From positions 135,155-199,154 of the forward strand of contig CALOEN010000021.1 in NCBI GenBank assembly GCA_942492335.1: a DNA stretch of 64,000 bases. Direction: 5' to 3'. How positions within the stretch are numbered: position 1 is the stretch's first letter; each line of letters begins with the position of its first letter. Below the pieces are notes generated by a model. That model was not told where the DNA came from, ran no database searches, and saw nothing but the letters and a program-made list of their open reading frames with translations. Both the position numbers and the translations under genes were made by a program. Source of the stretch: an uncultured beta proteobacterium. Lineage in GTDB: Bacteria > Pseudomonadota > Gammaproteobacteria > Burkholderiales > SG8-41. Shown here piece after piece: positions 40,536 through 58,433 of this stretch.

Positions 40536-40563
40536 CCGCACCTTAATCAGGGCACGATTTCCG

Positions 40564-40592: not shown

Positions 40593-40608
40593 CAGGGTAC
40601 TAACCATT

Positions 40609-42380: not shown

Positions 42381-44072
42381 TCACCGTGAGGTTGGGGCCG
42401 TCTTCTTTGGTTGCAGCAATCCGCTGCCGGGATGTTCCAGGCGGCTGAGTTCATAGTTGCCACCCAAATATCCCAGTTTTGATGCCCGACGGTACAGCGC
42501 TTTTGCTTCCGGCAACCGGCCCAGGTGTTCCAGGGCCAGGCCGAGACGATGATGCGTGACTCCGTCATCGGGCTGCAGCTCACGCGCACGCTCTAGAAAC
42601 GGCCGGGCGAGTTCATACTGTTCCAGCTGCAGGTGAATTGCGCCGCGCGCATAGTAGCAATGGAAGGTATTCGGGTAACGCGCCAGGCACAGATCAGTGA
42701 GGGCTATCGCCCGTTCCGGCCGCCCGTCGTACAGGTATTCCCGGCCGAGATTGTAGAGCGTGCGCGAGCCCCACGGCACCGGCTTTTCTGGAAGTCTGGC
42801 GACCGCGTCCTCCCACAATCGCAGCGAACTGGAAAAGGTCACAAGGCGATCGTGTGCCTGGAACAACAACACCGGTACCACGAAAACGAATGCTGTGAGC
42901 GCGGCGCGGCGCGGAATGGCACTGAGCGCCGCCGCGAGCGCAATAAACAGACCCGGCGCCCAGAGATAACTACGGTACAGCACAAACGGTTCCTGGAAAC
43001 GCGCCGTGCTGAACTCGACCAGATACAACACCCAGACGTAAAGCAAGCCGAATCCAATGAGCCCGGCCCGGCCGCCGCGCCGCAACAGCAGAAAACCGAT
43101 GATGCCGTACGCGGCAAATGCACCCACCTTGAGCGCGATCCAGCCTGCGGACCACGTGCCGAGAAAATCAACGCGCAAATCGATCGACATCGCCTGAACA
43201 TCGGGCCACAGCCACAGCGCGAGATAGTTGAAAAACAGACCGGCCTGAGTGACCGCGCTCAGCGACCAGGGAAACGCCCCAATATCCTGCCCGAACACGC
43301 TCTCGAGTTGGGTGGCCACCTGGCCGAAATCCGGTTCGTAGGATGCGCCAATCAGCCCCTTGCTGAGCAGCGCCACGAAGATGGCCGCAGGCGCGCAGAT
43401 CAGCAAATAGATGATCACATGACGCACGGCAAAGCGCCGCTCGACCGCCACCAGCGGTACTGCGAGTATGGCTACTGCGGGCAGCAACACGCTGTGCTCT
43501 TTGCTCAGCACCGCAAGCGAAAATAACAGTGCCGCCGATATCGCATCGGCATGGCTGCGGCGCGTCAAACCCCGGATGAACAGGATTGCCGACAACAGCG
43601 AAAACAGAGTGGCAAGAACAATGCTGCGCTGGATCAGATAACCCGCGCCGTAGACCGCCGCCGGCTGAATGACGAATAACACTGCGCCGATCGAGGCCCA
43701 GGCTGCGGCGTGAGTCGCCATGCCGTGCTGCTCTCCGGAACCATCTGGACGTCGCGCTGCGAGGAACAGATCGAAAATCAGCTTGTACAGCGCCAGCGCG
43801 CAAGCTACGTGCAGCGCAAGACCCAGAATACGGTGCGCTTCTATGCGCCCCCATAAGACCTCGACGAACGCAAGAGAAAAATAGGAGGGAATTCTCAACC
43901 CCCACCCCAGCGGATGCGTGGCGAAATACGACAGCAACCGTCCTGAGAAAAACCCTTTGTCGTCAAATACCGGCGGATTGCCCAGGAATGGCAGATACAG
44001 CGCGCAGGCCAGCACCACGATCACGCTTACGCCGATCAGATGCTGAAAACGCCGGGTGAAATTCATAGTCAT
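42381..44072 (-). CDS. Polytopic membrane protein with C-terminal TPR repeats (GT-C/PMT-like architecture; candidate pilin-modifying enzyme)
   Basis: About 10 or more hydrophobic helices in the first ~400 aa, then TPR-like repeats (YNLGREYLYDGRPERAI..., YYARGAIHLQLEQYELA..., HHRLGLALEHLGRLPEA...). Immediately downstream of the pilin genes. Confidence 0.6.
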   Translation of the reverse strand: MTMNFTRRFQHLIGVSVIVVLACALYLPFLGNPPVFDDKGFFSGRLLSYFATHPLGWGLRIPSYFSLAFVEVLWGRIEAHRILGLALHVACALALYKLIFDLFLAARRPDGSGEQHGMATHAAAWASIGAVLFVIQPAAVYGAGYLIQRSIVLATLFSLLSAILFIRGLTRRSHADAISAALLFSLAVLSKEHSVLLPAVAILAVPLVAVERRFAVRHVIIYLLICAPAAIFVALLSKGLIGASYEPDFGQVATQLESVFGQDIGAFPWSLSAVTQAGLFFNYLALWLWPDVQAMSIDLRVDFLGTWSAGWIALKVGAFAAYGIIGFLLLRRGGRAGLIGFGLLYVWVLYLVEFSTARFQEPFVLYRSYLWAPGLFIALAAALSAIPRRAALTAFVFVVPVLLFQAHDRLVTFSSSLRLWEDAVARLPEKPVPWGSRTLYNLGREYLYDGRPERAIALTDLCLARYPNTFHCYYARGAIHLQLEQYELARPFLERARELQPDDGVTHHRLGLALEHLGRLPEAKALYRRASKLGYLGGNYELSRLEHPGSGLLQPKKTAPTSR

Positions 44073-44124: not shown

Positions 44125-44592
44125 TTACGAACCGCGGCAGGAGCCGGGCAGGTACTTGGGCGGCAGGGTCGTGCCGTCTGCCGGCAGACCGCAGCGCCAG
44201 CCGTTGGGACCCGTGCCCATATTGGCAGCAGTATTCGCCGCAGCGGCGCCAATCATCGGCACCAGCGTTACGAACGTGCCGTCGACGTCGGACTTGATGT
44301 TGGCGCCCACGGTAACGGTAACCTTGCCGTCGGCATCAGTCGCAATACCGGCGACGTATTTCGAGGTCGCGCCTTCGCAGCCCCAGTTGTTCGCGCCGGG
44401 CGGCGTGCCGCCAGTCTGGTAGACCTCGGTAATACCGGTGCGGCAGGCACTCGCCGCCAGGATCACCTCGGACATTTTCGCGCGGACGGTATAGTCCTGA
44501 TACGCGGGCAGCGCAACCGCCGCCAGAATACCGATGATCGCGACCACGATCATCAGTTCGATCAATGTAAAACCCTGTTGTAACTTTTTCAT
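44125..44592 (-). CDS. pilE: Type IV (type IVa) major pilin, copy 1
   Basis: [34 protein letters not shown] (class III signal, G-1/F+1/E+5). Four Cys. C-terminal ...GSCRGS. Confidence 0.9.
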
Positions 44593-44655
44593 GATAAAGA
44601 TCCTAAGAGAGTTGAGGGAAAACACAAACTTTCGTTTGCGTTTGATTAACTAGAA

Positions 44656-44671
44656 CGCAATAACTGTACCA
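44656..44671 (-). promoter_or_regulatory. Sigma54 (-24/-12) promoter for pilin copy 1
   Basis: Minus-sense TGGTAC-AGTTA-TTGCG (GG-N10-GC), about 65 nt upstream of the ATG. Confidence 0.65.
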
Positions 44672-44898
44672 GCACAGTCGTAAAAACATCTCTTTTTTGT
44701 TTATCTATCTAATACAGCAGGATAGCCTGTCTTCCCCAAGCGAGCTATCTATGCGACTGAGACATTTATCACTATGGGGATCCGCACCCCTGCGTTAAGC
44801 ACAACTATTCAGGGCACATAGTGACTGTTTCTGTCAGTCCAGTTTCCATCGCTTGATTGAACGGTACTTACTGCCTAGCTTGGTTGATGGCCTGAACT

Positions 44899-45021: not shown

Positions 45022-45025
45022 GAGC

Positions 45026-45055: not shown

Positions 45056-45072
45056 CCCAAGCCAGTTGGCTA

Positions 45073-45540
45073 TTACGAGCCGCGGCAGGAACCGGGCAGG
45101 TACTTGGGCGGCAGGGTCGTGCCGTCAGCCGGCAGACCGCAACGCCAGCCGTTGGGGCCCGTGCCCATATCGGTTCCCGTATTCGCCGCATTGGCGCCGA
45201 TCATCGGCACCAGCGTTACGAACGTGCCGTCGACGTCGGACTTGATGTTGTTGCCCACGGTGACGGTAACCTTGCCATTGGCATCAGTCGCGATATTGGC
45301 GACGTATTTCGAGGACGCGCCTTCGCAGCCCCAGTTGTTCGCGCCGGGCGGCGTGCCGCCGGATTGATAGACTTCGGTAATACCGGTGCGGCAGGCACTC
45401 GCCGCCAGGATCACCTCGGACATTTTCGCGCGGACGGTATAGTCCTGATACGCGGGCAGCGCAACCGCCGCCAGAATGCCGATGATCGCGACCACAATCA
45501 TCAGCTCGATCAGGGTGAAGCCCTGTTGTAACTGTTTCAT
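45073..45540 (-). CDS. pilE: Type IV (type IVa) major pilin, copy 2
   Basis: [25 protein letters not shown].... Differs from copy 1 at 10 of 155 residues (my count), nine of them in the globular domain. Confidence 0.9.
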
Positions 45541-45600
45541 TAAAATATCTCCTGAAAGTTGATGGAAAACACAAACTTTCGTTTGCGTCTCACGCCATAG

Positions 45601-45616
45601 AGCAATATCGGTGCCA
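45601..45616 (-). promoter_or_regulatory. Sigma54 (-24/-12) promoter for pilin copy 2
   Basis: Minus-sense TGGCAC-CGATA-TTGCT, a near-perfect match to TGGCAC-N5-TTGCW. Same distance to the ATG as in copy 1. Confidence 0.75.
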
Positions 45617-45879: not shown

Positions 45880-46560
45880 TCAAGCAACCTGGCCCGCCAC
45901 ACTGAGCATGCGCTCGCGTTCGGCGCGCCACGCATCGGCATATTCACATTCCCGGTATGAGTCGAAGTACGGCCCACCCAGGGTAAAGTGGACCAAAGCC
46001 GCATCGTCCCTGGGGGCGCTATAGCCTACGAGGTGGTTCCAGCGGTCCGGCAACGCACCGATCAGCGCCTCATTCTCCAGCCACTTGAACTGATGCAGTT
46101 CAAGTCCGGAGGCGGTGTTGACGTACTCGGGCGTCAGGGCACGGCATCGGGTATTGTTGAACAGCATGACGCTCGACCAGTTCTTTTTCTCGTACTTGCT
46201 TTGCGGCTCCCCGAGAAACTTGGTGGTTTCCTGCGGCACATGGTTGTGCTTGACCACCATTACCGCATAACGGTCGTCGCGCAGACTGAACAGTTTGGCA
46301 ATGTCGTCGAGCATCAGCATGTCGCAATCCATGAACAGCGACCAGCCCGCATAGTCCGAAAGACTGGGCGTCAAAAATCGCGAGAACGAGAAATCGGTGC
46401 TTTGCAGCGGATGGCGCTCCCGGGGCAATACGCGATTCAACTGGCTCAGCATGAGCGGGGCGACGGTGACAGGCTCCGACGCGCGTGACTGTATGCTATA
46501 GGCCAGGACACTGAATGCCACGGCCTCGCGTGGGTCGTAGCCAATAAACACATTGATCAT
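45880..46560 (-). CDS. Glycosyltransferase-like protein (GT8-like fold, DxD motif)
   Basis: MINVFIGYDPREAVAFSVLAYSIQ...WSLFMDCDMLMLDDIAKLF (DCD). 226 aa. Confidence 0.6.
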   Translation of the reverse strand: MINVFIGYDPREAVAFSVLAYSIQSRASEPVTVAPLMLSQLNRVLPRERHPLQSTDFSFSRFLTPSLSDYAGWSLFMDCDMLMLDDIAKLFSLRDDRYAVMVVKHNHVPQETTKFLGEPQSKYEKKNWSSVMLFNNTRCRALTPEYVNTASGLELHQFKWLENEALIGALPDRWNHLVGYSAPRDDAALVHFTLGGPYFDSYRECEYADAWRAERERMLSVAGQVA

Positions 46561-46587: not shown

Positions 46588-48237
46588 TTAATGCAAGGGG
46601 GGCGGCACATAACCCGGGATTTTTGAGAGATCGACTTTGTCAATCTGCCCCGGATCGAGGAACTGCCTCGCATATTTCTCGTAAACCTTTGCCCACATGA
46701 ACACATCGAACAGGTCGGGATCGACATGCCCGCCAAGCTTGAATTTCCCAAGTATGGTCAGCGACTCGGTCAGCGATTTTCCCTTCTTGTACGGACGGTC
46801 TTTTGCTGTCAGTGCCTCGAAAATATCGGCGATGCCCATGCAGCGCGCTTGTATCGACATCTGTTCGCGGGTAAGGCCCCGCGGATAGCCTTTGCCGTCC
46901 ATACGCTCGTGGTGCCCGCCGGCATACTCGGAAACACGTGTCAGATGCTTGGGCCAGGGCAGTGACTCCAGCATCTGGATCGTCACCTCGATATGATGGT
47001 TGATGATGCCGCGTTCCTCTTTAGTCAGAGTGCCTGCGCGTATCGTCAGGTTCTTGACCTCATCCGCCGAAAGAAAATCAGCCATTTCCCCAGTCGGATC
47101 GCGCCATGAATATTTTTTTGCGATTGCACACACGCGTTTCTGGTCGGCCTCCGCCATCAACTCGCCGCCAATATTGACGCGGCGCAGGAACGTCCGGTCG
47201 TCGTCGATCGCCTTGAGTTGATCGCTCGGGTCAAGGCCATTGCGCAGGGCTTCGAGTTCGATATCACGCCGGATCACTTCAAAGCGGGTATCGATCAGAC
47301 CGATACGGTCAAAAATGGTCTGCAGCTTGGTGGCCTTGTCGACCACATGCACCGGTGTTGTCACCTTGCCGCAATCGTGAAGCAGTCCCGCGATCTTGAG
47401 TTCGTAGCGATCACGGTCGCTCATCGTGAAATCCTTGAGCGGCCCGACACCACAGCTGTTGACGGCCTCGGCCAGCATCATCGTCAGCACCGGGACGCGC
47501 TCGCAGTGTCCTCCCGTATAGGGCGACTTGTCGTCTATAGCTGCGTTGATCAGGCTGATGAACGACTCGAACAGTGTTTCGAGGTGATTGATCAGCAGCC
47601 GGTTGGTCAGTGCAATAGCGGCCTGCGAGGCAAGCGATTCGGCGAGCTGCTGATCGGCGTCGGAAAATGCCGAAACTTCGGCAGTAACCGGGTGTTTGGC
47701 ATTGATGAGCTGAAGAACGCCGATGATTTCGTTCTCGTGATTCTTCATCGGCACCGTTAAAAATGATCGGGAACGGTATCCCGTTTTTTTATCGAAATTC
47801 TTGGTGCCGGAAAAATCGAAGCCGTCCTCGACATAAGCATCGGCGATATTGATGGACTTGTCGTGGTGCACCGCATAGGCCACCACCATGGAGTTGATCG
47901 GCTGGTTATCCTTGTCGTGAAGGTGGATCGGGTAAAATGGGATTTCAACGCCGCTGGTACCGCCCATGGCGATACCCAGCGTGTCGTTGCGCATGATCTC
48001 GAATTTGAGCGTGCCTTCCTCGGTCATGCGGTAAAGTGTGCCGCCATCCGCGTTGGTGATATCTTTGGCCGCAACCAGGATGGTTTCGAGCAGCTTGTTG
48101 ATGTCGCGCTCCTTGGAGAGCGCAACGCCGATGCCCAGCAGCTGGTCGAGCCGACGCAGGAGATCGTCTGATTCCGGGGCAAGCTGCGTCCGGCTCATGG
48201 CGGGTCGCGGCGCGCGGCTATTTGATGCAGACCGCAC
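46588..48237 (-). CDS. GAF domain + HD-GYP domain protein (predicted c-di-GMP phosphodiesterase); start ambiguous (GTG 48237 or ATG 48198)
   Basis: GAF: ILVAAKDITNADGGTLYRM...LTVPMKNHENEIIGVLQLINAKH. HD-GYP: LLHDCGKVTTP...GGHHERMDGKGYPRGL. Confidence 0.85.
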   Translation of the reverse strand: MRSASNSRAPRPAMSRTQLAPESDDLLRRLDQLLGIGVALSKERDINKLLETILVAAKDITNADGGTLYRMTEEGTLKFEIMRNDTLGIAMGGTSGVEIPFYPIHLHDKDNQPINSMVVAYAVHHDKSINIADAYVEDGFDFSGTKNFDKKTGYRSRSFLTVPMKNHENEIIGVLQLINAKHPVTAEVSAFSDADQQLAESLASQAAIALTNRLLINHLETLFESFISLINAAIDDKSPYTGGHCERVPVLTMMLAEAVNSCGVGPLKDFTMSDRDRYELKIAGLLHDCGKVTTPVHVVDKATKLQTIFDRIGLIDTRFEVIRRDIELEALRNGLDPSDQLKAIDDDRTFLRRVNIGGELMAEADQKRVCAIAKKYSWRDPTGEMADFLSADEVKNLTIRAGTLTKEERGIINHHIEVTIQMLESLPWPKHLTRVSEYAGGHHERMDGKGYPRGLTREQMSIQARCMGIADIFEALTAKDRPYKKGKSLTESLTILGKFKLGGHVDPDLFDVFMWAKVYEKYARQFLDPGQIDKVDLSKIPGYVPPPLH

Positions 48238-50591
48238 GCACCTGTTTCATATCGGTTATTCCCATCAGGACTTTTTCGATGCCGTCCTGTTTGAGGGTGC
48301 GCATGCCGTTCTCAAGCGCAGTCGCCAGCATCTGTGCCACTCGGGCATGCTCCTGGATATTCTTCTTGATGATGTCCGTGCCCATCAGCAGCTCATGGAG
48401 ACCGAGGCGCCCCTTGTAGCCGCTGTTGTTGCAGACAGGGCAACCCTTTGCCGCCTGGATCACAAATTCCCCCTGCTCATTGGCAAAGCTCTTTTTCCAT
48501 TCATCCATGATCTTTGCGCGCTCACCTGCCGCGTCTTTTTTCCAGGCCTCGGTATTCTGCAATTCGAGCGAATATTCATCCATCAGGAGTTCAACCTCCT
48601 CTGGTGCCAATACCTGGGGTTCTTTGCACTTCCCGCACAAGCGCTTGGCCAGACGCTGGGCCAGGATCCCGAGCAGCGCATCCGCAAAATTAAACGGGTC
48701 CATGCCCATGTCCAGCAAGCGGATGATGGATTCCGGCGCGCTGTTGGTATGCAGCGTCGCGAACACAAGGTGGCCCGTGAGCGAGGCTTCGATGCCGGTC
48801 GAAACCGTTTCCTTGTCCCGCATCTCGCCAACCATGATGATGTCCGGATCGGCGCGCAGGAAGGCTTTCATCGCAATCGCGAACGTCAGTCCGGCTTTCG
48901 GATTCATCTGCACTTGGCGCAGGCCCCGTTGCGTGATCTCGACCGGGTCTTCCGCGGTCCAGATTTTGGTGGCCGGCTTGTTAAGATAGCCCAGCACAGA
49001 GTGCAGCGTCGTGGTCTTGCCCGATCCGGTCGGACCGCAGACAAAGAACAGTCCATACGGCTTCTCGATGGCCTCCTTGAACATCTGGAGGTTGCGCGGT
49101 CAGCCCCAGTTTGTCGAGCGGAATCGGCTCGCCGGCGGCGAGTATACGCATCACGATATCCTCGACGCCGCCCGCCGAAGGTATCGTCGCCACCCTCAAT
49201 TCGATATCGAGGGGGCCGAACTTTTTGAACTTGATCTTGCCGTCCTGCGGCTTGCGACGCTCTGATATATCAAGGTCGCACATGATTTTGAGGCGTGCAG
49301 CGAGCGCGTTGCGGTAATTCGCAGGCACCGAAATATACGGCGTCAGCGTTCCGTCCTTGCGAAAGCGGATCTCGGTCTTGGCTTTTCCCGGATACGGCTC
49401 AATATGGATATCCGAGGCGCCCTGCTGGTAAGCATCGATGATGACCTTGTTGACGAGTTTCACCAGTTCGTTGTCGCTCGCCGCGGAAGCGATGTCATCG
49501 CCCCCCCCCACGCCCTCTTCCATTTCATCGTCCAGCGTGCCCAGCAGATCCTGAACATTACCGCTGTCCTCCATCGCGCTGCCGCCGAACATCTGGTCGA
49601 GCGTTGCCGCAAACTCGCGATTGGTGCAAACCGTGTAGACGACTTTGCTTTTCGGATAGACGTTGTTGACCATTTTCGACGATTTGGTCTTTTCCGGATC
49701 GATGGTCAGCACCACGATCCCTTCTTTCGTGTCCTCGAGCGGAATCCACATATTGTTGTGGCAGAATTCCCGGTTCATGTTTTTCATGAGATCGGGCTGC
49801 CTGATGCGATCCTGCTTGGGCGGCTCATACGGCACGCCAAAATAGGCAGAGAGCGCCTCTCCGAGCGCCGGCACTTTGACCTGAAATTCGTCGATCAGCA
49901 CCGTTTCGATATCGAGATTCTTGCGACGAGCGGAACGTTGGGCAAGCTCCAGCTCTTCAGCAGAGATGATGGCCTCGGTAACCAGCCCGTCGTATTTGCT
50001 GCGCACCTGCAGCGTCGGATTCTGCCGCTGCCGCATTGCAATCGCCAGTGTTTCGCACAGCTGCAAAACGCCCTCTTCCATGATCGGCAGGAACGGCTGG
50101 CCGGTCTTGGAATTGATGATCTGAACCACCCCTATGAGCTCCCGGGTCTTGGCTTCGAGCACGGGCGCCACCAGCATCTGCTTGGTGCGATAGCCGGTTT
50201 TGCTGTCGACCGCCTTCAGAAAATGCAACTGTCCACTGTAGGACTTGAGCTCACCATCGTCATAGACATCGCGGATGTTTATGATTCGTTTATGCACTGC
50301 GACGAACCCGGCGATCGACTGTTCGTTGATCGGCAACCTGATATCCTTGAAGGAATTCAGGCCGGTCTTGACCTTGGACACGATCGAACTCTTGTCCTCG
50401 GTCACTATATAAAGCGTAAAGCGGTCGGAATTGAACAGGCTGCACAAATCCTGCGAGAGCTCGAGGATAATCTCGTCGATGTTGGTTGTGGCGTGTATCC
50501 GGTTGGTGACCGATTGCAGTTTTTGCTGGAAATTCAGCTTCTCGGCCAGGTTGTCCTGGGCCACCGGCTTGCTTCGGAGTACAGTGCTCAT
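48218..50591 (-). pseudogene. GAF + GspE_N + GspE/PilB-type secretion ATPase, split by one frameshift near 49094..49100
   Basis: ORF 48981..50591 carries GAF (ILELSQDLCSLFNSDRFTLYIV...LVAPVLEAKTRELIGVVQIINSK), the T2SSE N-domain and the ATPase N-lobe, ending ...DKLGLT. ORF 48218..49084 continues (RNLQ)MFKEAIEKPYGLFFVCGPTGSGKTTTL (Walker A) ...CGKC...CPVC. The two frames join only by a 1-nt insertion or 2-nt deletion at ctgaccGCGCaacctc. Confidence 0.85.
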
Positions 50592-50661
50592 ATCGCCCTC
50601 ATCTCAGGTCAGCATACCGCGTCGACATCATGAGCTGCGGCAAGAAATTCATGCTATCGGT

Positions 50662-51426
50662 TCAAAATTCAAAGATCTGGTTGTTCTGCAGCATGCGCGG
50701 CCGCCATTTTGCCGCGCACTCCTCGATCTCGCGCATCGTCAATTCGATTTCACCTGGTTTCAGGTGGGTGATATAAATCTCCGCCGGCCGCTCAAGCTTG
50801 GACAACTCCTCGGCGAGCATGCTCGGGCACAGATGCTTGGACGCGACAGCCAGATCCTTTTCACGATTACAGAACGCCGTCTCGATGATCAGATAACGCA
50901 AATTGGCGATGCGGTTGACTTCTCGCCACAACGGATCGTTAGTCGTGGTATCGCCTGAAAAAACCAGGCTGGCACGGCCGGAATCGAGTTGAAATCCCAC
51001 CGCAGGCACCACGTGGTTAGCCGGCAACGGCGTTATTATTCTGCCTTTCAATTCGACAGCTTTCCCCAGCGTGATGGTTTCAAATTTCAGCACGGGGTTT
51101 TTCGCATCTGGAATCTCTGTGAAATCCGGCCACAGCTTCCAGTTGAACAGGTGTTTTTTTAGAATATCAGTCGTCTGCTCCGTTGCATGAATGGTGATCG
51201 GCTTGTCACGCATCCAGCCTACGGTGTCAGCAAGGAACGGGATGGACGTCACATGATCCATGTGGGAATGCGTAACGAAGACATGGTCGATCAGCGACAG
51301 CTCGCTGACCAGCAAATCTCCCACGCCGGTGCCCGCGTCGATCAGGATGTCATGATCGAGCAGAATTGACGTCGTGCGCAGATTGCCGCCGATTCCACCA
51401 CTGCAGCCGAGTATTTTCAGTCTCAT
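50662..51426 (-). CDS. Class-II-like 3',5'-cyclic-nucleotide phosphodiesterase (MBL fold)
   Basis: MRLKILGCSGGIGG...THSHMDHVTSIPFLAD. Near match to the class-II PDE signature HxHLDH as I recall it. Confidence 0.75.
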   Translation of the reverse strand: MRLKILGCSGGIGGNLRTTSILLDHDILIDAGTGVGDLLVSELSLIDHVFVTHSHMDHVTSIPFLADTVGWMRDKPITIHATEQTTDILKKHLFNWKLWPDFTEIPDAKNPVLKFETITLGKAVELKGRIITPLPANHVVPAVGFQLDSGRASLVFSGDTTTNDPLWREVNRIANLRYLIIETAFCNREKDLAVASKHLCPSMLAEELSKLERPAEIYITHLKPGEIELTMREIEECAAKWRPRMLQNNQIFEF

Positions 51427-51429
51427 TAT

Positions 51430-53667
51430 TTACTTGGTTTCAAAAGTATAGGCGCCGTCCCAGTCCGAACCCGGCGGGCTCACCCGGAAATGCGCAATAC
51501 GCTCAAGGTACACATTGTAGAGCCCGGCGTCATCGGCTGTTTTCTTTAGGTTGATCAGCTGCAATTCGGCCATATCCCAATCCTGTGCACGGTACAATTT
51601 AAGTGATTGTTTCCAAAGACCTATTTCATCAATAACGGCTTTGTCGACCTGGCCTTCCAAGCCCAGCGGCTGGTAGATGGCCACCGGTTCCACCTTGCCT
51701 TTGACGCGAACCCGGTCGATTTCCCGGCACACGAAGCCTGAAATCAAACTCTTGGTGCCCTCGCCGATAATAATATCAGCCCCATATTGTTTTGTGATGC
51801 CCTCGAGCCGTGAAGCGATATTTACCGCATCACCCATTACAGTATAAGCCTTGCGGATCTGTGATCCCATATCGCCAACCCGCACCACCCCTGAGTTGAC
51901 CCCCACGCCAATCTTGAATGTCGGCCAGCCCTTTTCCTTGAATTTCTGATTCAGGATCTTGGCGGCGGCCTGCATATCGAGTGCTGCAAGCACGGCGTTT
52001 TTAGCGTGCTCGGGATCGGACACCGGCGCACCCCAGAAAGCCATCACCGCATCGCCTATGTATTTATCTAGTGTGCCGCGGTGTCCTTCCCGAATCACCA
52101 GGCTCATGGCCGTAAGATAATCATTGATATAGGCCGACAGGTCCTCCGGCGTCAAGCTTTCGGAAATCGTGGTAAATCCGCGCACATCGGAAAACAGTAT
52201 AGAGAGTTCCTCTGCGCGGGGCGCCATGTTGAATTTTTCCGGATTCTTTGCCATCTCATCGACCAACTCGGGCGGCACGTACTGGCCGAATAAACCCGTG
52301 ATCTGGCGCATGCCGCGGGCTTCAACAAAAAAACCATATGCCATGTTGTGGGTGAACAGCAGCAAAATCATGACCAGCCCCGAGGCCAGCGGCAGCACCA
52401 CGTTCCCGACATGAAACACAACCAGGTTGGTAACCAGCGCCAGGAGCAGCGCCAAGACAGTAGCCAGGGTCGACATCAGCGGGTTGAGCAAGGGCAGCAG
52501 CAGCGCAATCGCCAACCCCGAGAGCAGAAGAATCATGAACTCCGCGCCCACCACATACGGCGGTTTCTGCTTGATATTGCCGTCCAGAATTCCGGTGATC
52601 AGATTGGCGTGGACCTCGACCCCCGGGTAAACCGGGTCGACCGGCGTGGCCCGCAGGTCAAGCAGCCCGGGTGCTGTCGTGCCGACAAGCACGATTTTTC
52701 CCCGGAGTTCGGCGGCATCGATACGGTCGTTCAGAACATCGACGATGGATATATATCTGAAACTGCCCTTGCGCCCGCGATAAGGCACCAGTGACGCTGC
52801 GTATTCATCTACCGGGATCCTGAGTGATCCGATTTTAAGCCACTCGAATCCCGAGTAGCTGCCGGACAGACCCTGGTCCGTGAACACGGGCTGGATCGGC
52901 GGCATGCCTATCAGGGCGCGGACCATCGCCAGTGCCAGGGGTTCGTAATACTTGCCTTGATATTCGGCAAGCATCGGCACCCGGCGCGTGATGCCGTCGT
53001 CGTCGGTCCAGGGATTGAAATGCCCGGCGCTGGCGGCATTTTTCTGCAACTCGGCCAGATTCGCCGTGTAACCGGTCCACGAGGTGACGCCGATTTTCCG
53101 GCCGCCTAACGCGTCGGCGGCAAACACCGGCGGCGGCAACATGCCCTTCTTCGGGGCCAGCGCGGGGTCGTCGCTGGAAAACGTGAAGCCCAGCACAACC
53201 TGCCGCCCCTTCATTTTGCGGGCGAAAATATCATCATATTCGAGATTCGGCTTGATTTTATTCAGCGCCGACTGGAACTGCTGTACGTCCCTGAGTTCTT
53301 TCTGTCCGAGTTGCTCCAGCACGCGTATGCCCGATGATTCATCGCGTTCGGCAAACACCACGTCGAAACCGACGATAGCAACCTGGTATTTGTCGAAAAG
53401 CTTGTCCAGGAGCAGCGCCAGCCGGTCGCGCGACCATGGCCAGCGGCCTTCGCCACCTCTTTCCTTTTCAAGCAGGCTCTTTTCGTCGATATCGAGGATG
53501 ACGATGCGGCTGTCCACCGTGCGAGGCATGGTCAGCCGCAACCGCGTGTCATAGATAATGGACTCGAGGTTGTCTATGAGCGGCAGCCGGTAGAAGCCGA
53601 TGGTATGTCCAAGGAACAGCGCCACCAACGCCAAGCCTATGGCAATTCGGACGAGATTTCTCTTCAA
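51430..53667 (-). CDS. CHASE2 sensor domain + class III adenylate/guanylate cyclase
   Basis: TTG start with GAGGAGA RBS. CHASE2: IVILDIDEKSL...GRWPWSRD. TM block. Cyclase: LSILFSDVRGFTTISE...KYIGDAVMAFWGAP...GDAVNIASRLEG. Confidence 0.88.
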   Translation of the reverse strand: MKRNLVRIAIGLALVALFLGHTIGFYRLPLIDNLESIIYDTRLRLTMPRTVDSRIVILDIDEKSLLEKERGGEGRWPWSRDRLALLLDKLFDKYQVAIVGFDVVFAERDESSGIRVLEQLGQKELRDVQQFQSALNKIKPNLEYDDIFARKMKGRQVVLGFTFSSDDPALAPKKGMLPPPVFAADALGGRKIGVTSWTGYTANLAELQKNAASAGHFNPWTDDDGITRRVPMLAEYQGKYYEPLALAMVRALIGMPPIQPVFTDQGLSGSYSGFEWLKIGSLRIPVDEYAASLVPYRGRKGSFRYISIVDVLNDRIDAAELRGKIVLVGTTAPGLLDLRATPVDPVYPGVEVHANLITGILDGNIKQKPPYVVGAEFMILLLSGLAIALLLPLLNPLMSTLATVLALLLALVTNLVVFHVGNVVLPLASGLVMILLLFTHNMAYGFFVEARGMRQITGLFGQYVPPELVDEMAKNPEKFNMAPRAEELSILFSDVRGFTTISESLTPEDLSAYINDYLTAMSLVIREGHRGTLDKYIGDAVMAFWGAPVSDPEHAKNAVLAALDMQAAAKILNQKFKEKGWPTFKIGVGVNSGVVRVGDMGSQIRKAYTVMGDAVNIASRLEGITKQYGADIIIGEGTKSLISGFVCREIDRVRVKGKVEPVAIYQPLGLEGQVDKAVIDEIGLWKQSLKLYRAQDWDMAELQLINLKKTADDAGLYNVYLERIAHFRVSPPGSDWDGAYTFETK

Positions 53668-53684
53668 ACCGTCTCCTCTGCCTT

Positions 53685-53732
53685 AGGGACTGTTAACAAT
53701 TACCACATGAGTGGTAATTGTTAACAGTCCCT
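53685..53732. repeat. Perfect 22-bp-stem palindrome (4-nt loop) immediately upstream of the cyclase RBS
   Basis: AGGGACTGTTAACAATTACCAC-atga-GTGGTAATTGTTAACAGTCCCT. It ends 5 nt from the GAGGAGA RBS. Related to the element at 13461..13524. Confidence 0.9.
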
Positions 53733-53946
53733 GGGTATGGGGTTTGAGACCCACCCCCGGTTGTTGCTCGCCGGCCTGAGCATTTCCTGCCCTTTCCTGC
53801 TGACCAAAAAGCCGGGTCCTGACGGCATGCGCCGCAAGCCCGGCCCAGTGATTTCTTGCATCGTCCCGCGCCGCCGACTCAATGCCGGAAAGTCATATAA
53901 CTATTAAAATACAATGGATTACAGTTAATCCGGCACCCAGGATCGG

Positions 53947-54729
53947 CTATTTTGTTTTGATGAAAAATTCCATTTTCACGCCGGTAAGCTCTATCACATC
54001 GTGATCTTTGAGCGGGGATGCCTGCGCATCGAGCACCTTGCCGTTGATCACAGGGAAACTCGCGCCTTCAACATGCGTGATGAAATAGCCCTGAGGCCGG
54101 CGCGTGATGACTGCGACCTGCACGCCGGGCTTGCCAAGGGTGGTCAGATTCTTGGTGAGTTCAAGTTCCTTGCCCGCGCTCGGTCCATTCAGTATCTGAA
54201 CGGCAGCCAGCATTGGCGCAGCGGCGGCCGGCGGCGCAGCAGCAGCAGTAGTAGCAGTAGTAGTAGTAGTAGTTGCAGCGGGCTTCGCCGCTTCGGCGGC
54301 CGCTGCAGTTGCAGCGGCTGACGCTGCAAAGGCTTGCGTGTCGCCCGCTGATTTGGGGCCGGCGGGTTTCGCCATGGGTGATCGCAAGACCATGGTCTTC
54401 TCAAACTCATCGGCCGACGTCTGGCCCGCTGCCGGTACGTCGGCGATATATTTGAGCTTGTACTTGCCGACCTCGATCACGTCGTTATTCTGGAGAATAT
54501 GCTTCTTGATCGGGTTGCCGTTGACCAGCGTGCCGTTGGTGCTGCCCAGATCCTCAAGGAACGAATCGTTGAGTATCGTCACAATGCACGCGTGTTCGCT
54601 GCTCACCGCCAGGTTTTCAATCTGGATATCGTTCTGCGGTTTGCGCCCAATCGTTACCCGTTCCTTGTCGAGGGGAACTTCCCTGATTACCGACCCATCC
54701 AGACTTAGAATCAACTTCGCCATGGTCAT
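53947..54729 (-). CDS. Double FHA-domain protein with Ala/Thr-rich linker
   Basis: N-terminal FHA: VTIGRKPQNDIQIENLAVSSEHACIV...GSTNGTLVNGNPI. Linker: AAATAAAAEAAKPAATTTTTTATTAAAAPPAAAAP. The C-terminal second FHA-like domain ends ...DHDVIELTGVKMEFF. Confidence 0.85.
   Translation of the reverse strand: MTMAKLILSLDGSVIREVPLDKERVTIGRKPQNDIQIENLAVSSEHACIVTILNDSFLEDLGSTNGTLVNGNPIKKHILQNNDVIEVGKYKLKYIADVPAAGQTSADEFEKTMVLRSPMAKPAGPKSAGDTQAFAASAAATAAAAEAAKPAATTTTTTATTAAAAPPAAAAPMLAAVQILNGPSAGKELELTKNLTTLGKPGVQVAVITRRPQGYFITHVEGASFPVINGKVLDAQASPLKDHDVIELTGVKMEFFIKTK
54237..54276. repeat. Trinucleotide microsatellite (CAG)n(AGT)n inside the FHA linker
   Basis: cagcagcagcagtagtagcagtagtagtagtagtagttgc. 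On the coding strand it encodes AATTTTTTATTAAA. Confidence 0.85.
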
Positions 54730-54739
54730 ATCCCTTAGC

Positions 54740-55557
54740 TTATCTAAACCAAGCTTTTAATGTTTCCAACCATCCGGCGCGGGGCACCGGGAAATCTTTT
54801 ACTACACGAACCAGAATAACCGAAATATTGTCACGACCGCCATTGTCATTGGCCTGTTGCACCAGTTGCTCTGCCGCCAGCGGCAAATTTGCCTGCAGCG
54901 AGGACAACGTCAGCTGAATATCCTCGTCAGTCACCATGTCGCTCAATCCGTCCGAGCACAATAAATAGAGGTCGCCCGGCTGGACCGGATACGTATGCAC
55001 TTCCGCCTCAACTTCCGGATCGATGCCGACAGCGCGAGTCACCAGGTTCTTATTTTGCGAAAACTTCGCCTGCTCCCTGGTTATCATGCCGCTATCTATC
55101 TGTTCCTGCAACAAGGAATGGTCACGCGTCACCTGTTCAAAGGTGTCGTCCCGGAGCCGGTAAAGCCTGGAGTCCCCGATATGGCCAACTGTCATCTGAT
55201 TGTCATGCCATAACGCTACCACCAGAGTCGTGCCCATGCCGGAGTACTGCGACTGGCTCTGCGCCGCCTGGTAAATTGCAAGATTGGCTTGTACATGGCG
55301 TGCTCGCTGAGCAGAGATTCTGCACCCGCATCCGGGATCTTGCCGTTTTCGCCGCCCAGCATCTTCTTCATTTCAGCCGAAATCATGGCCACGGCAATAC
55401 CGCTCGCCACTTCGCCGGCATTGTAGCCACCCATGCCGTCGGCCAGCACGGCCAGCCCGATCTCGGCATCCGCGGCTATGCTGTCCTCGTTGTGCGAACG
55501 CACCATCCCGGAGTGGGTGGCGGTCGCGACGTCAAGGGCAGCGGTTAAATTTACCAA
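54740..55557 (-). pseudogene. PP2C-family Ser/Thr phosphatase, split by one frameshift near 55294..55297
   Basis: ORF 55216..55557: THSGMVRSHNEDS...LADGMGGYNAGEVAS... ORF 54740..55237: (VQANLAIYQAAQSQSQYS)GMGTTLVVALW...HIGDSRLY...LLCSDGLSDMV...DNGGRDNISVILV. The frames join between ...SLLSEHA and VQANLAIY. Confidence 0.85.
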
Positions 55558-55566
55558 AATCAGCTC

Positions 55567-58179
55567 CTAAAGATTGATATCCACCGAAACAGTGTTCGGT
55601 GCCGCACTGTTATCGATGCACTCGCGCAATGCCTTGGCCATTTCATCCCCGGTCTGATAGCGGCTCTCCGGCTGCTTGGCCAGCGCCCGGTTGATGACCG
55701 CGACCAGCGCCGGGGAAAGCGTGGGGCTGTAAGTAAGAATGTCAGTATGCGGCTCATTGGCGATTTTGAACATGAGTTGGGCCATCGAGTCGCCTTTGAA
55801 CGGCAGATACCCGCAGCACAGCTGGTAGAGCGTGGCTCCCAGCGAGAACAGATCAGACTTGCCTTCTATCTTCATCCCGGCAAGCTGCTCGGGAGACATA
55901 TAGGAGGGCGTGCCCAGCACCATGCCGGTCTTGGTCTTGGATGAATCCGTAATACGCGCAATGCCGAAATCGGTCACTTTGACGGTATCGCTTTCCAGCT
56001 CATACATGATGTTGGCGGGCTTGATATCGCGATGCACGACATTGTTACGGTGCGCATAACCCAGCGCTTCCGCGACGCGGGCGACGATGGATAAAACCGT
56101 CGGCAGCGGTAGCAGCTTGTCGGCTTTGGTATAAGGCGCCAGATCCCCGCCTTTCAAAAACTCCATGGCGATGAAAGCCAGGTCATGCTCTTCACCGGCA
56201 TCGAAAATCGTAACAATATTCGGATGGTTAAGCCGGCCGGCGGTTTCAGCTTCGCGGAAAAAACGTTCCTTGACGTCCTGCAACTCGTCAGCCTCGAATT
56301 CCTGTGACAATGCCATCGTCTTGATCGCCACGACGCGGCCGATCTTCGGATCCTTGCCAAGATAAACGATGCCCATCGCGCCTTTGCCCAACTCCTTCTC
56401 GACCTGATAGCGGCCAAGCATGGGCTTCTCCACGCCCCCTCCGGCCATGATCACCGTGCCTCCGGGATGACTGCCGCCGGAGCCAAGCATTACGGTTTCC
56501 GACATGGCTGTGGCGCGGTTGAGCCGCTGCTCGATGTCACGGAATTTCGGATTAAACTCGGACATGTAACGCAACGCCGATTCCGCCTTGTTGAACTGCC
56601 GCTTGCGCTCGAAGTCCAGCGCCAGGCTATAGAGGTTTTCCATTACCGCATCAGTAATCGGGCATTTGCGGAACATGTCCCAGGCCATATCCAGCTGCCC
56701 CTGCGCCTGATAGGCGATGCCGAGCATGCGGTTGCTCTCCGCTGATTGTGCATCCGAAGTTTCCTTGCCGCGCTCGGTGACAAGAAAGCGTTTGCTGATC
56801 AGCGCTGCATACCCTACCGCCAGCAACAACACCGACGTCATCATTTGTAACCACATCAACTGGGTCACCATCAACGCAAAATGCGCGCCGATCAGGGCAA
56901 TGGCAATGAAGAGGCTGACTATGCCCGCGACCGCTGCCTTCATGCGCGGCAGAATGGCAATCAGGTAAATGGCCACCAGCAGAAATACCAGCTTCTCTAC
57001 CCAGGGACTCCAGGTAGGGACAACGAAGAAATGCTCTCCCAAAATACTCGATACCGTATGCGCCAGGATCAGCACCGGCGCGGTCACGGGCGAAACCGGC
57101 GTCACCTGAGACGAGCCCAGTCCCGCTGCGGTTGCACCTATCAATACGATCTTGTCCCGATATTTCGCGGCCGGGATCTTGCCGCTGAGGACGTCGTAAA
57201 ATGAATCGACGGAAAATGCCGGTTTCGCGTCGCGATCACCGTAGAAAAAAGTATACATACGAAACTCGGGATCGGTCTTGACTCTGAGTTTGCCTATCCG
57301 CACTTCCTCTCCGGCAACGAGCTTGATATCTGCTATCTTGAGGTTGAGACTGCTTGCCGCCACCATCACCGCCAGCGCGGGAAAAGCCTTGTCGTAGTAG
57401 CGCAGAACCAGCGGCTCTGCACGCACCGCGCCATCGATATCGTTCGCTGAATTCAGATGCCCGATTCCGGTTGCGCTGCTTCCCAGAGCGGCAATAGGGT
57501 ACAGCGGATTGATGCCTGGAATGGGCAGATCAGCCGTTCTCGTGTCGAATGCCAGGCTGTTGGCCACCACGTAATCCGGCAACGGTTTGTCGGGATTACC
57601 CTGCGGCTCACTGAGTGACTGGAACACCATGGGCAGCATGACATTGCCGGCACGTTTGAACGCATCAGCCAGCTTGCGGTCGGTATTGAGCGCCTGCTCC
57701 GCTTCCTGCAGCAACGCGCCGAACTGAACGATATCGGGCCCGGCAGTCTGGGCATCTGGCACGGTGAGCGCTACCACCGGTTCAGGGACCGCAGTTTCAG
57801 AATGGGGTTGCGGCGCACTTCTCGTGTAAAGCTCCAGCAGCTTATTGATGTAGACCAGCCCCGGATCAATCTGAGGTTCAAAAAAGAAAGTGCTGTTAAC
57901 AATAACCTTGGCCTGTGCTGCCGCCAGAACATCGGTCATTTTGGCGTGAACATCGCGCGGCCAGGGCCAGCGCCCGATGTTGGAAATGCTCCGGTCATCG
58001 ATTGCAATGACGGCGACCTTGTCTGATGGCGTACGCGAAACAGCATTGACCCCCAAATCGTAGGCCTTGCGCTCAAGGCTTTGAATCAGGTCGCCACGGG
58101 CAGCAACCGCCATAACAAGCACGATCACTACCCCCAGAAACCAGTCAGATTTATAAAAAGCCCGTTTATTCATCCCCAT
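55567..58179 (-). CDS. CHASE2 sensor domain + transmembrane block + TPR-like segment + Hanks-type Ser/Thr kinase
   Basis: CHASE2: VAVIAIDDRSISNIGRWPWPRDVHA. Four or so TM helices. Kinase: GKGAMGIVYLGKD...VAIK, HRDIKPANIMY, DFGIAR, TPSYMSPEQ. Confidence 0.88.
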   Translation of the reverse strand: MGMNKRAFYKSDWFLGVVIVLVMAVAARGDLIQSLERKAYDLGVNAVSRTPSDKVAVIAIDDRSISNIGRWPWPRDVHAKMTDVLAAAQAKVIVNSTFFFEPQIDPGLVYINKLLELYTRSAPQPHSETAVPEPVVALTVPDAQTAGPDIVQFGALLQEAEQALNTDRKLADAFKRAGNVMLPMVFQSLSEPQGNPDKPLPDYVVANSLAFDTRTADLPIPGINPLYPIAALGSSATGIGHLNSANDIDGAVRAEPLVLRYYDKAFPALAVMVAASSLNLKIADIKLVAGEEVRIGKLRVKTDPEFRMYTFFYGDRDAKPAFSVDSFYDVLSGKIPAAKYRDKIVLIGATAAGLGSSQVTPVSPVTAPVLILAHTVSSILGEHFFVVPTWSPWVEKLVFLLVAIYLIAILPRMKAAVAGIVSLFIAIALIGAHFALMVTQLMWLQMMTSVLLLAVGYAALISKRFLVTERGKETSDAQSAESNRMLGIAYQAQGQLDMAWDMFRKCPITDAVMENLYSLALDFERKRQFNKAESALRYMSEFNPKFRDIEQRLNRATAMSETVMLGSGGSHPGGTVIMAGGGVEKPMLGRYQVEKELGKGAMGIVYLGKDPKIGRVVAIKTMALSQEFEADELQDVKERFFREAETAGRLNHPNIVTIFDAGEEHDLAFIAMEFLKGGDLAPYTKADKLLPLPTVLSIVARVAEALGYAHRNNVVHRDIKPANIMYELESDTVKVTDFGIARITDSSKTKTGMVLGTPSYMSPEQLAGMKIEGKSDLFSLGATLYQLCCGYLPFKGDSMAQLMFKIANEPHTDILTYSPTLSPALVAVINRALAKQPESRYQTGDEMAKALRECIDNSAAPNTVSVDINL

Positions 58180-58250
58180 CTCGTGATTTTTTGTATTCTT
58201 GTAAAGGGTTAACGCCGATCACTAATTCATTTTACGATATTTGTCTGAAA

Positions 58251-58280
58251 AGTATATGTTTTTTTTGACATGTATGCCAA
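58251..58280 (-). promoter_or_regulatory. Candidate sigma70 promoter for the kinase-PP2C-FHA unit (TTGGCA-N18-TATACT)
   Basis: Sequence match only, about 70 nt upstream of the kinase start. Confidence 0.3.
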
Positions 58281-58433
58281 TAATTTCACGTAAATACAGG
58301 CTATTACAACATCCCGCCACCCTCGAATCATGATCGATCCGAATCATAAGGCAGTGTTGCGGCACTGCGGCAGAGGCAAAAAATAGTGCACAAAATCAGG
58401 AACGTGGCTTTATGCGGCAGCGAAAAAACCGGT

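Follow-up and report, generated by a model that had tools for sequence, protein, structure and literature searches.

Does a single gene cluster tie an envelope-sensing cyclase to a pilus-type motor and to the turnover of cyclic di-GMP (c-di-GMP)? The question is raised by seven consecutive minus-strand genes at positions 46588–58179 of a 64-kb stretch of DNA from an uncultured betaproteobacterium, hereafter the window. In the order of transcription, they encode a CHASE2-containing Hanks-type Ser/Thr kinase, a PP2C phosphatase, an FHA-domain protein, a CHASE2-containing class III cyclase, a predicted cyclic nucleoside monophosphate (cNMP) phosphodiesterase (PDE), a PilB-like hexameric ATPase with an N-terminal GAF domain, and a GAF–HD-GYP protein. 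A preliminary description of this DNA had proposed that they form one signalling system. On balance, we favour the reading that the cluster is a conserved betaproteobacterial second-messenger cassette, with a cyclic AMP (cAMP) core of cyclase, PDE, GAF-ATPase, and GAF–HD-GYP protein and an accessory phosphothreonine arm.

Gene order and conservation of the cluster

Pfam searches found every domain named in the preliminary description, the number of FHA domains apart, and the coordinates and spacings of its seven minus-strand genes were confirmed. From the kinase gene to the HD-GYP gene, the intergenic gaps as called are 9, 10, 279, 3, 70, and −20 nt. The HD-GYP protein probably starts at the ATG at 48198, which gives 536 residues as in the closest relative used for DNA alignment (L001, GCA_030683105.1; 89% nucleotide identity to the window), and the last gap would therefore be +19 rather than −20 nt. 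The observation is real, except that two of the genes, those for PP2C and the ATPase, are each interrupted and present as two open reading frames (ORFs) in the window copy.

Related loci were collected by a scan with the GAF-containing N-terminal 499 residues of the ATPase, with one genome per species. At least 581 confirmed stretches matched this query, and the best 80 of these all cover query residues ~1–498 at 61–82% identity; their labels include Sulfuritalea, Gallionella, Propionivibrio, Methyloversatilis, Noviherbaspirillum, Pelomicrobium, Usitatibacteraceae, and Nitrosomonadales. The cassette is present in at least 80 species-level genomes, including those of groundwater, soil, and wastewater Betaproteobacteria. 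Homologues of the ATPase stitched across its two ORFs number in the thousands, and the best 120 among the matches listed share at least 79% identity with it, all of them from metagenome-assembled genomes of Betaproteobacteria/Burkholderiales.

Gene order at each related locus was determined by tblastn with the window proteins. The full order kinase–PP2C–FHA–cyclase–PDE–ATPase–HD-GYP is kept in 33 of the 51 loci with at least 8 kb of upstream and at least 2 kb of downstream flank, to which this count was limited. The HD-GYP gene lies directly 3′ of the ATPase gene in 67 of 70 loci and the PDE gene upstream of the ATPase gene in 69 of 75, and a pilin gene is found within ~10 kb downstream in 28 of 52. 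The order is maintained at 60–80% protein identity, with spacings of 3–70 nt, in many species-level genomes, and the annotated gene order in L001 and in a second annotated relative (L002) matches that of the window. Neighbourhood analysis, which the preliminary description had suggested, thus found a tightly spaced cluster conserved across many Betaproteobacteria, and the absence of synteny that it had named as a refutation was not observed. Moreover, the cluster occupies a fixed chromosomal position across species (formyltransferase ... sox genes) and not a variable island. Its genes are under purifying selection, the ratio of nonsynonymous to synonymous substitution rates (dN/dS) relative to L001 being 0.03–0.12 overall for the kinase, FHA, cyclase, PDE, and HD-GYP genes and both halves of the ATPase gene.

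Variant loci delimit the part that does not vary. In L032-type loci (L032, and also L008, L038, L044, and L058), the kinase gene is a 219-residue internal-deletion remnant (3364–4023 in L032), in which the extreme N-terminus is fused to the kinase C-lobe and the CHASE2 domain, membrane region, and N-lobe are deleted. Neither a kinase nor a cyclase gene is present in Pelomicrobium-type loci. In Noviherbaspirillum/Paucimonas-type loci (L064, L066, L069, and L077), the CHASE2 cyclase, HD-GYP, and PDE genes are divergent from the ATPase gene, whose neighbours encode a small cNMP-binding protein, FecR-domain proteins, and a two-partner-secretion (TPS) pair consisting of a 1993-residue TPS-domain exoprotein and its ShlB/FhaC transporter; a gene for a TPR protein also flanks the variant cluster. 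This arrangement raises the possibility that proteins secreted or located in the periplasm act as partners of CHASE2 sensors. The ATPase and HD-GYP genes are all that is left of the cluster in L033, where they lie beside a ribosomal-protein/rpoA-like operon (translations judged by eye), and in 28 loci a gene for a cNMP_binding–rhodanese protein is inserted between the PDE and ATPase genes. Because the kinase is reduced or missing and the cyclase missing in such variants, the invariant core is the ATPase and the HD-GYP protein, which the PDE accompanies in almost every locus and the cyclase in most, and the phosphothreonine arm is accessory.

Frameshifts in the window copy

The PP2C gene consists of two overlapping ORFs in different frames (55216–55557 and 54740–55237), as does the ATPase gene (48981–50591 and 48218–49084). 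Alignment to L001 revealed 2 extra nucleotides in the window at ~55291–55294 in the PP2C gene and the loss of 2 nt at ~49099/49100 in the ATPase gene, five codons upstream of Walker A, and the remaining indels across the 22 kb compared are compensated or multiples of three. The ATPase ORF is intact in 74 related loci, the best 120 homologues among the matches listed are likewise intact (mostly ~790 residues), and an intact PP2C homologue of 270 residues is encoded in both annotated relatives, L001 and L002. A truncated ATPase product of 536 residues is on record from the deposited 310,603-bp contig, and the lesion therefore belongs to the public assembly. The window copy is either newly inactivated or mis-assembled.

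That the phosphatase and the motor have truly been lost in this genome, with both frameshifts as genuine mutations, is a serious possibility, although we lean against it. Both lesions are 2-nt indels outside homopolymers, which is not the commonest type of sequencing error, the truncated product is present in the deposited assembly, and kinase or cyclase genes have been lost in other lineages. However, neither broken gene shows relaxed selection: dN/dS relative to L001 is 0.086 and 0.034 for the two ATPase halves, compared with 0.05–0.12 for the intact neighbours, the C-terminal part of PP2C is 95% identical to L001, and no secondary stops are found in either gene, while the relatives retain intact copies. 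The N-terminal part of PP2C has a dN/dS of 0.22. A third split gene, for an unrelated thiamine pyrophosphate (TPP) enzyme, also lies within the 64 kb and fits a general assembly indel problem. A gapped exact pattern across the ATPase lesion had no match in metagenome contigs, and the sole relative in Logan is a 1.4-kb contig with the PDE only.

The split TPP gene (60965–62705, minus strand) has TPP_N at 62139–62705 in one frame and TPP_M and TPP_C at 60965–62335 in the other. Its product looks like an oxalyl-CoA decarboxylase and the gene adjoins one for a family III CoA-transferase; of the three frameshifts in the 64 kb, this is the only one in an unrelated gene.

Cyclase, phosphodiesterase, and GAF domains point to cAMP

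The closest solved chains to the cyclase are an engineered bacteriophytochrome–cyclase fusion (6FHT, E value 6.7e-34) and then Pseudomonas aeruginosa CyaB (3R5G, 6e-33). The Lys in LDKYIGD and the Thr in AYTVMGD align to the substrate-specifying Lys/Thr of CyaB, a pair that we take to be the class IIIb adenylate-cyclase pattern, whereas Glu replaces this Lys in the guanylate cyclase Cya2 (DEFMGD; 2W01). In addition, the metal-binding Asp residues and the transition-state Asn and Arg are present (FSDVRGFT and AVNIASRLE align with CyaB), and the protein thus has all the residues expected of a predicted class IIIb adenylate cyclase. Its start in the window (53665–53667) and the aligned starts in 27 loci are mostly TTG or GTG, followed by AAG/AAA AAG/AAA, and this conserved non-ATG start may limit translation of the cyclase.

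The PDE scores 52 bits against Pfam PDEase_II (cut-off 23.7), its best PDB sequence match is yeast PDE1 (4OJV), and its homologues are named 3′,5′-cyclic-nucleotide phosphodiesterase by NCBI. The top Foldseek matches of its AlphaFold2 model (pLDDT 80) are Bacillus subtilis YhfI, Apyc1 (7U2R and 7U2S), RNase Z, and PDE1, with TM scores of 0.72–0.79. It therefore resembles yeast Pde1 and the Apyc1/YhfI metallo-beta-lactamase (MBL) nucleases in fold, in its HxHxDH metal motif, and in a PDEase_II match above the gathering score; it differs from them in scoring 44 bits against NCBIfam NF041851, far under the cut-off of 400, and the fold alone also fits short RNase Z-like enzymes, from which it is not separable on that basis. 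The pairing of the cyclase with a cNMP phosphodiesterase across a 3-nt gap, claimed in the preliminary description, stands: the gap was confirmed and the neighbouring protein is, by its matches, cNMP-phosphodiesterase-like.

The GAF domain of the ATPase is nearest to the cAMP-bound tandem GAF of Anabaena CyaB2 (1YKD, 7e-26) and then to PDE2A GAF-B (3e-11). Its TGYR(T/S) segment, which presumably corresponds to the TGFRT phosphate-contacting segment of PDE2A with which it aligns, is invariant in 74 relatives. The best PDB matches of the HD-GYP protein are PmGH (4MCW, 7e-31), V-cGAP3 (1e-21), the PDE5 GAF (5e-16), and the CyaB2 GAF (3e-9). The two GAF domains share 32% identity, and by these matches both would fall in the cNMP-binding class, in agreement with the earlier assignment of cAMP/cGMP-type GAF domains to two effectors. 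Taken together, the cyclase residues, the PDE matches, the matches of both GAF domains, and the precedent of Tlr0485 (see below) make it the best-supported reading that the cyclase would produce cAMP, for which both GAF domains would be the readers.

It is unlikely that the cyclic nucleotide is instead read by CAP-type receptors, with the GAF domains sensing another metabolite or only dimerising. Candidates for such receptors are the cNMP_binding–rhodanese and small cNMP_binding proteins of variant loci and a kinase–cNMP_binding fusion encoded in the window (32693–34021). In 28 of 75 loci, and in the L064-type variant as well, the cluster contains or adjoins CAP-type cNMP-binding genes; furthermore, the GAF domain of the HD-GYP protein lacks, by eye, the GIAG segment of PmGH and PDE2A, and the PmGH GAF has no identified ligand. 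However, both GAF domains match best the cNMP-binding GAFs of CyaB2, PDE2A, PDE5, and PDE10 and not those of the haem, NO, or 2-oxoglutarate types, and the ATPase GAF has the conserved TGYR(T/S) segment. Moreover, the window cluster has no CAP-type gene between PDE and ATPase, which leaves the GAF domains as the only candidate readers within it. The CAP-type genes in and beside variant clusters were also counted in favour of a cAMP theme.

A PilB-like ATPase with a degenerate MshEN domain

The translated ATPase contains GPTGSGKT, DPDIIMVGEMRD, TAEDPVE, ATLHTN, and CGKC...CPVC, all conserved in 74 relatives, with a ~50-residue insertion between the Cys pairs. The full motif set of PilB (Walker A, Walker B, Asp/His boxes, and Zn-binding tetracysteine) is thus encoded. 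The preliminary description had called the tetracysteine and Walker A intact; this holds for the encoded motifs but not for the window ORF, which is broken before Walker A. The best PDB matches are Myxococcus xanthus PilB (3JC8, 4.6e-109), Geobacter PilB, Thermus PilF, and then GspE. Against the NCBIfam models, the ATPase scores 488.8 bits for PilB (TIGR02538; cut-off 675.65), 436.5 for GspE (cut-off 630.25), and 380 for TfpB (cut-off 850).

The MshEN domain is recognised by Pfam (1e-9) and aligns weakly to that of M. xanthus PilB (1.7e-4). In this alignment, judged by eye, the R/G/G/Q positions of the second motif are D/E/F/Y and the first motif is without RLG. The tandem c-di-GMP motif RLGxx(L/V/I)(L/V/I)xxG(L/V/I)(L/V/I)xxxxLxxxLxxQ was accordingly not found in the ATPase, and the N-domain of Vibrio cholerae MshE gave no match to it at E ≤ 10.

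No pilC, pilD, pilT, pilM–Q, or gsp gene was found in the 64-kb window, in L001, in L002, or among the recurrent neighbours of 82 loci. Since a type IVa pilin and pilin-glycosylation-type membrane proteins recur downstream, we infer that a pilus is the most likely output, through a machine encoded elsewhere. The ATPase might alternatively serve another GspE-family machine (type II secretion system (T2SS)-like, competence, or a novel filament) or act as a non-motor regulatory NTPase, which we hold to be improbable. Its scores fall under the curated PilB, GspE, and TfpB cut-offs, platform and alignment genes are not found near it, its two Cys pairs are separated by the insertion and it has a GAF domain in addition, and in L064-type loci its gene adjoins the TPS pair and FecR proteins in place of pilins. 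However, PilB outscores GspE in both NCBIfam and PDB comparisons, the N-domain is of the MshEN/N1D type found in PilB, MshE, and PilF, and type IVa pilin and pilin-glycosylation-type genes recur downstream.

In a search of 50%-identity representatives, GAF–MshEN–T2SSE proteins with one to three GAF domains were found in many other 50%-identity clusters at 29–45% identity to the ATPase. The fusion itself is therefore widespread, and it is unstudied.

The predicted HD-GYP effector

The HD-GYP motifs LLHDCGK and HHERMDGKGYPRG are intact, with HHERMDGKGYP in the translation. With these motifs and a full-length domain, the protein is a predicted HD-GYP phosphodiesterase, for which c-di-GMP and cyclic GMP-AMP (cGAMP) are both candidate substrates. 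An insertion of ~65 residues (~328–391) splits the domain, Pfam HD matching residues 242–327 and HD_5 residues 392–509; a widely distributed insertion in REC–GAF–HD-GYP proteins has been reported in Leptospira (PMC12943098).

The GAF–HD-GYP protein Tlr0485 requires cAMP for c-di-GMP hydrolysis (Galperin and Chou preprint, 10.1101/2021.11.05.467447). The window protein shares with Tlr0485 of Thermosynechococcus vulcanus and with the PmGH family the GAF–HD-GYP architecture and intact HD and GYP motifs. It differs from them in the insertion and in its genetic coupling to a cyclase, a PDE, and a GAF-ATPase; moreover, whereas cAMP control of c-di-GMP hydrolysis is documented for Tlr0485, the ligand of the window protein is predicted from sequence.

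A predicted accessory phosphothreonine arm

The kinase motifs VAIK, HRD, DFG, and SPE are all present in the translation, and the kinase gene is found at the cluster position in most related loci. The stitched PP2C scores 253 bits against NCBIfam Stp1_PP2C, above the cut-off of 230. For the FHA protein, which the preliminary description had called double-FHA, Pfam finds one domain only, at residues 25–88. The GR...SxxH...NGT signature of this canonical domain is invariant in 32 homologues, in which the C-terminal domain is equally conserved. Comparison of the C-terminal with the N-terminal domain by hhalign gave an E value of 0.0015 and a probability of 16%, in register and without the phosphothreonine-binding residues. 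The AlphaFold2 model (pLDDT 54) is too weak for the C-terminal fold, and its Foldseek matches are all FHA domains. The second domain is thus at best a degenerate FHA-like fold.

A CHASE2 domain is carried by the kinase and the cyclase alike, as had been noted, but the two domains are distant paralogues with 27% identity. At this identity, a recent duplication was rejected, and the notion that one envelope signal is converted in parallel by kinase and cyclase is not supported; a shared signal is possible but not indicated. The kinase/PP2C/FHA trio described earlier is therefore present by its domains, but its PP2C is frameshifted in the window and the arm is accessory across lineages.

Threonine phosphorylation by the PpkA/PppA/Fha1 triad is a feature of type VI secretion systems (T6SS), and the archaellum is controlled by the FHA protein ArnA, kinases, and PP2A. 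The window arm resembles these regulators in placing a membrane Hanks kinase, a PP2C-type phosphatase, and an FHA protein beside a secretion- or filament-type component, and the parallel drawn earlier with PpkA/PppA/Fha1 is apt in logic. It differs from the T6SS pathway in its CHASE2 sensor, in the second, degenerate FHA-like domain, and in the loss of the module in some lineages. The arm is not a member of that pathway: neither the window nor the related loci yielded any T6SS gene, and the FHA protein scores 50 bits against TIGR03354 VI_FHA (cut-off 120).

The kinase–cNMP_binding fusion named above (minus strand) is a cytoplasmic Hanks kinase (Pkinase 2e-54) with a C-terminal CAP-type cNMP-binding domain (2e-15), a second kinase–cyclic-nucleotide link ~12 kb from the cluster.

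Proposed mechanism and relation to known systems

In the cassette as we envisage it, the membrane CHASE2-gated class IIIb adenylate cyclase would produce cAMP on an envelope cue and the neighbouring class-II/Apyc1-like phosphodiesterase would reset its level. The messenger would be read by the cNMP-type GAF domains fused to two effectors. One is the PilB-like hexameric ATPase with its degenerated MshEN c-di-GMP motif, which would most likely act on a type IVa pilus machine encoded elsewhere; the other is the HD-GYP phosphodiesterase, which would lower c-di-GMP. A rise in cAMP may thus switch pilus extension on and bring c-di-GMP down together, both signs of regulation being presumed. The second CHASE2 sensor, on the Hanks kinase, would with PP2C and the FHA adaptor form an accessory arm of reversible phosphothreonine control, lost in some lineages, that acts through a presumed FHA target. 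The strongest form of this proposal is that cAMP itself gates a type IV pilus extension motor by way of a fused GAF domain, which has taken over functionally from c-di-GMP binding at MshEN, in one cassette with an envelope-sensing cyclase, a PDE, a cAMP-activated c-di-GMP hydrolase, and phosphothreonine/FHA tuning; this form we put forward only tentatively, as rather doubtful.

Several observations weigh against the cassette reading. The ATPase falls under the PilB and GspE family cut-offs, the pilC, pilD, pilT, pilM–Q, and gsp genes are missing nearby, and pilins, which have promoters of their own, lie next to the cluster in no more than about half of the loci. In the window, the ATPase and the PP2C gene each carry a frameshift. 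Furthermore, the range of ligands bound by GAF domains is wide, and sequence similarity cannot single out cAMP from cGMP or some other molecule. Finally, some lineages lack the kinase arm or retain it in degraded form, and Pelomicrobium-type loci have no cyclase; the seven genes are therefore not an obligate unit.

That unrelated signalling genes merely lie side by side, with no functional system, is very unlikely. Each domain family is common and promiscuous, the spacer between the FHA and cyclase genes is variable (7–599 nt), and in the window it holds a terminator-like hairpin. However, the order and tight spacing persist across many species-level genomes at the protein identities given above, the genes share a coherent theme of maker, breaker, and reader domains for one messenger class, and cNMP-binding genes have been gained within the cluster. 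A Pycsar-type anti-phage cyclic-nucleotide defence with its own Apyc1-like nuclease, which the match of the cyclase domain to PADLOC PycC models (best 9.8e-28) and the likeness of the PDE to anti-Pycsar Apyc1 in fold and precomputed Pfam matches might suggest, is scarcely credible and was rejected: the PADLOC matches are limited to generic cyclase and kinase domains, no Pycsar effector (cNMP-activated transmembrane or TIR protein) was found with PADLOC, the cyclase has the CyaB-like Lys/Thr adenylate-cyclase pair, and the chromosomal context is fixed.

For the preferred cassette, each part has a known counterpart. PilB/MshE extension ATPases are controlled by c-di-GMP via their N-terminal MshEN domain, as reviewed in 2024 (PMC11656802). 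The window ATPase shares with V. cholerae MshE, M. xanthus PilB, Clostridium perfringens PilB2, and Thermus thermophilus PilF a PilB-like hexameric core, an MshEN domain, and, as predicted, an N-terminal sensor of a nucleotide messenger. It differs from them in an extra cNMP-type GAF domain ahead of MshEN, in the replaced c-di-GMP motif residues, and in a gene position beside a cyclase/PDE pair and not beside pilC and pilD. The same review contains no mention of GAF domains (PMC11656802).

In P. aeruginosa, cAMP is linked to type IV pili by the CyaB/Vfr circuit (PMC11656802), and CyaB is the closest natural solved structure to the catalytic domain of the window cyclase. In contrast to that Pil-Chp/CyaB/Vfr circuit, in which Vfr, a transcription factor, mediates the action of cAMP and a chemosensory pathway drives CyaB, the window cyclase has its own CHASE2 domain and the enzymes themselves bear the GAF domains proposed as readers.

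No paper on the cluster or on a GAF–PilB ATPase was found in the full-text literature, where most subscription-journal papers fall outside coverage. The earlier statement that no characterised example exists therefore holds for the cluster and the GAF–PilB fusion in that literature but not for every part, the cAMP-activated GAF–HD-GYP protein Tlr0485 being known. The cassette is apparently undescribed and built from known parts, with an optional phosphothreonine arm; what was not found described is the GAF domain on a PilB-type ATPase and the conserved combination.

Known control of extension motors runs through c-di-GMP at MshEN, through PilZ/FimX cofactors, or indirectly through cAMP via Vfr. 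If the proposal is correct, a PilB-type ATPase with its own cNMP-sensing GAF domain would be a new post-translational route from an envelope signal to pilus activity: a single envelope event would raise cAMP, lower c-di-GMP, and bring pili out without a transcription factor, and the cassette would be a hard-wired node of cAMP-to-c-di-GMP crosstalk. It may govern attachment and biofilm behaviour in environmentally important, little-studied bacteria and would offer a tractable entry to the ligand of CHASE2 domains.

Regulatory DNA and flanking genes

The features of the cluster and its flanks are listed in Table 1.

Table 1. Positions of the seven cluster genes, the adjoining genes, and a candidate promoter in the window
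Feature	Coordinates	Strand	Support
Candidate sigma70-like promoter upstream of the kinase gene	58251..58280	-	TTGGCA-18-TATACT, 10/12 matches; function inferred
CHASE2–transmembrane region–Hanks-type Ser/Thr kinase, 870 aa	55567..58179	-	Pfam CHASE2 1.8e-50, Pkinase 1.3e-54
PP2C (Stp1/IreP-type) phosphatase, split by +2-nt frameshift	54740..55557	-	Two ORFs match adjoining parts of Pfam PP2C_2/PP2C
FHA protein: canonical N-terminal FHA, variable Ala/Pro/Thr linker, conserved C-terminal FHA-like beta domain	53947..54729	-	Pfam FHA 4.6e-21
CHASE2–transmembrane region–class III (IIIb-type) adenylate cyclase (predicted), TTG start	51430..53667	-	Pfam CHASE2 1.2e-56, Guanylate_cyc 7.5e-23
MBL-fold class-II/Apyc1/YhfI-like cyclic-nucleotide phosphodiesterase (predicted), 254 aa	50662..51426	-	Pfam Lactamase_B_2, PDEase_II 6.4e-14
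GAF–MshEN (degenerate)–PilB-like hexameric ATPase, split by 2-nt deletion	48218..50591	-	Pfam GAF, MshEN, T2SSE across two ORFs
GAF–HD-GYP phosphodiesterase, ~65-aa insertion in the HD-GYP domain	46588..48237	-	Pfam GAF 1.4e-15, HD, HD_5 1.3e-38
GT8-like glycosyltransferase, variable accessory	45880..46560	-	Pfam Glyco_transf_8 1.2e-4, under cut-off
Type IVa pilin with sigma54 −24/−12 promoter (45601–45616)	45073..45616	-	NCBIfam prepilin domain
Second pilin, at least 90% identical paralogue, sigma54-like box upstream	44125..44680	-	NCBIfam prepilin domain
Polytopic membrane protein, C-terminal TPR	42381..44072	-	Pfam TPR residues 440–530; hydrophobic multi-span N-terminal part

A conserved non-coding block at 58183–58290, upstream of the kinase gene, contains an A-tract, CATAnACTTT, ATATCGTAAAAT, and GCGTTAAC, and persists in relatives whose proteins are only 60–70% identical; it is probably a promoter and leader. 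Between the FHA and cyclase genes, a perfect 21-bp inverted repeat (GGGACTGTTAACAATTACCAC) with a 4-nt loop lies at 53686–53731, just upstream of the ribosome-binding site of the cyclase, and a related repeat with a longer loop lies at 13455–13525. The first is absent from L001 and from all 82 related loci, from which the second is likewise absent. A conserved operator was therefore rejected, and the palindromes look like a genome-specific element of the repetitive extragenic palindromic (REP) or miniature inverted-repeat transposable element (MITE) kind, given their absence from relatives and the related copy; the palindrome noted earlier in the 279-nt gap is thus no conserved part of the cluster. 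No conserved regulatory site was found between the FHA and cyclase genes, the spacer being unalignable across loci. As this spacer can be as short as 7 nt, all seven genes may form one operon in many genomes; in the window, a terminator-like hairpin with a T-run follows the FHA gene. No Rfam family was found at gathering scores, and two sub-threshold matches look like chance.

Downstream of the cluster, two co-directional pilin genes were found, as the claim of sigma54 pilins had implied. The box of the first, TGGCACcgataTTGCT, matches TGGCAC-N5-TTGC perfectly and a terminator-like hairpin follows the gene; the box upstream of the second, TGGTACagttaTTGCG, is a near-match to it, and the pilin paralogue P0130 belongs to the same 90% cluster. 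In L001 there is one pilin only and the GT8-like gene is missing, which indicates a recent pilin duplication and insertion in the window (44125–45540). The GT8-like gene is present in a minority of loci, at varying distance, so that the adjacent glycosyltransferase, named earlier as following the seven genes, is not a conserved part of the cluster. The polytopic TPR protein is possibly a pilin-glycosylation enzyme, and related loci repeatedly have TPR, Wzy_C, and PMT_2 proteins downstream. Across the 82 loci, the neighbour families that recur comprise TPR proteins, Wzy_C, GT2/GT4/PMT_2 glycosyltransferases, an M48 peptidase, and Sox proteins.

The window also has a sulfur-oxidation neighbourhood at 17768–31677 and 38000–42327. 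It comprises an sHdr-like set (DsrE, CCG-domain and 4Fe-4S proteins, a pyridine-nucleotide-disulphide oxidoreductase, two LplA-like lipoate ligases, and radical-SAM proteins) together with soxYZAXB-like genes, which suggests that the source organism is a sulfur-oxidising betaproteobacterium.

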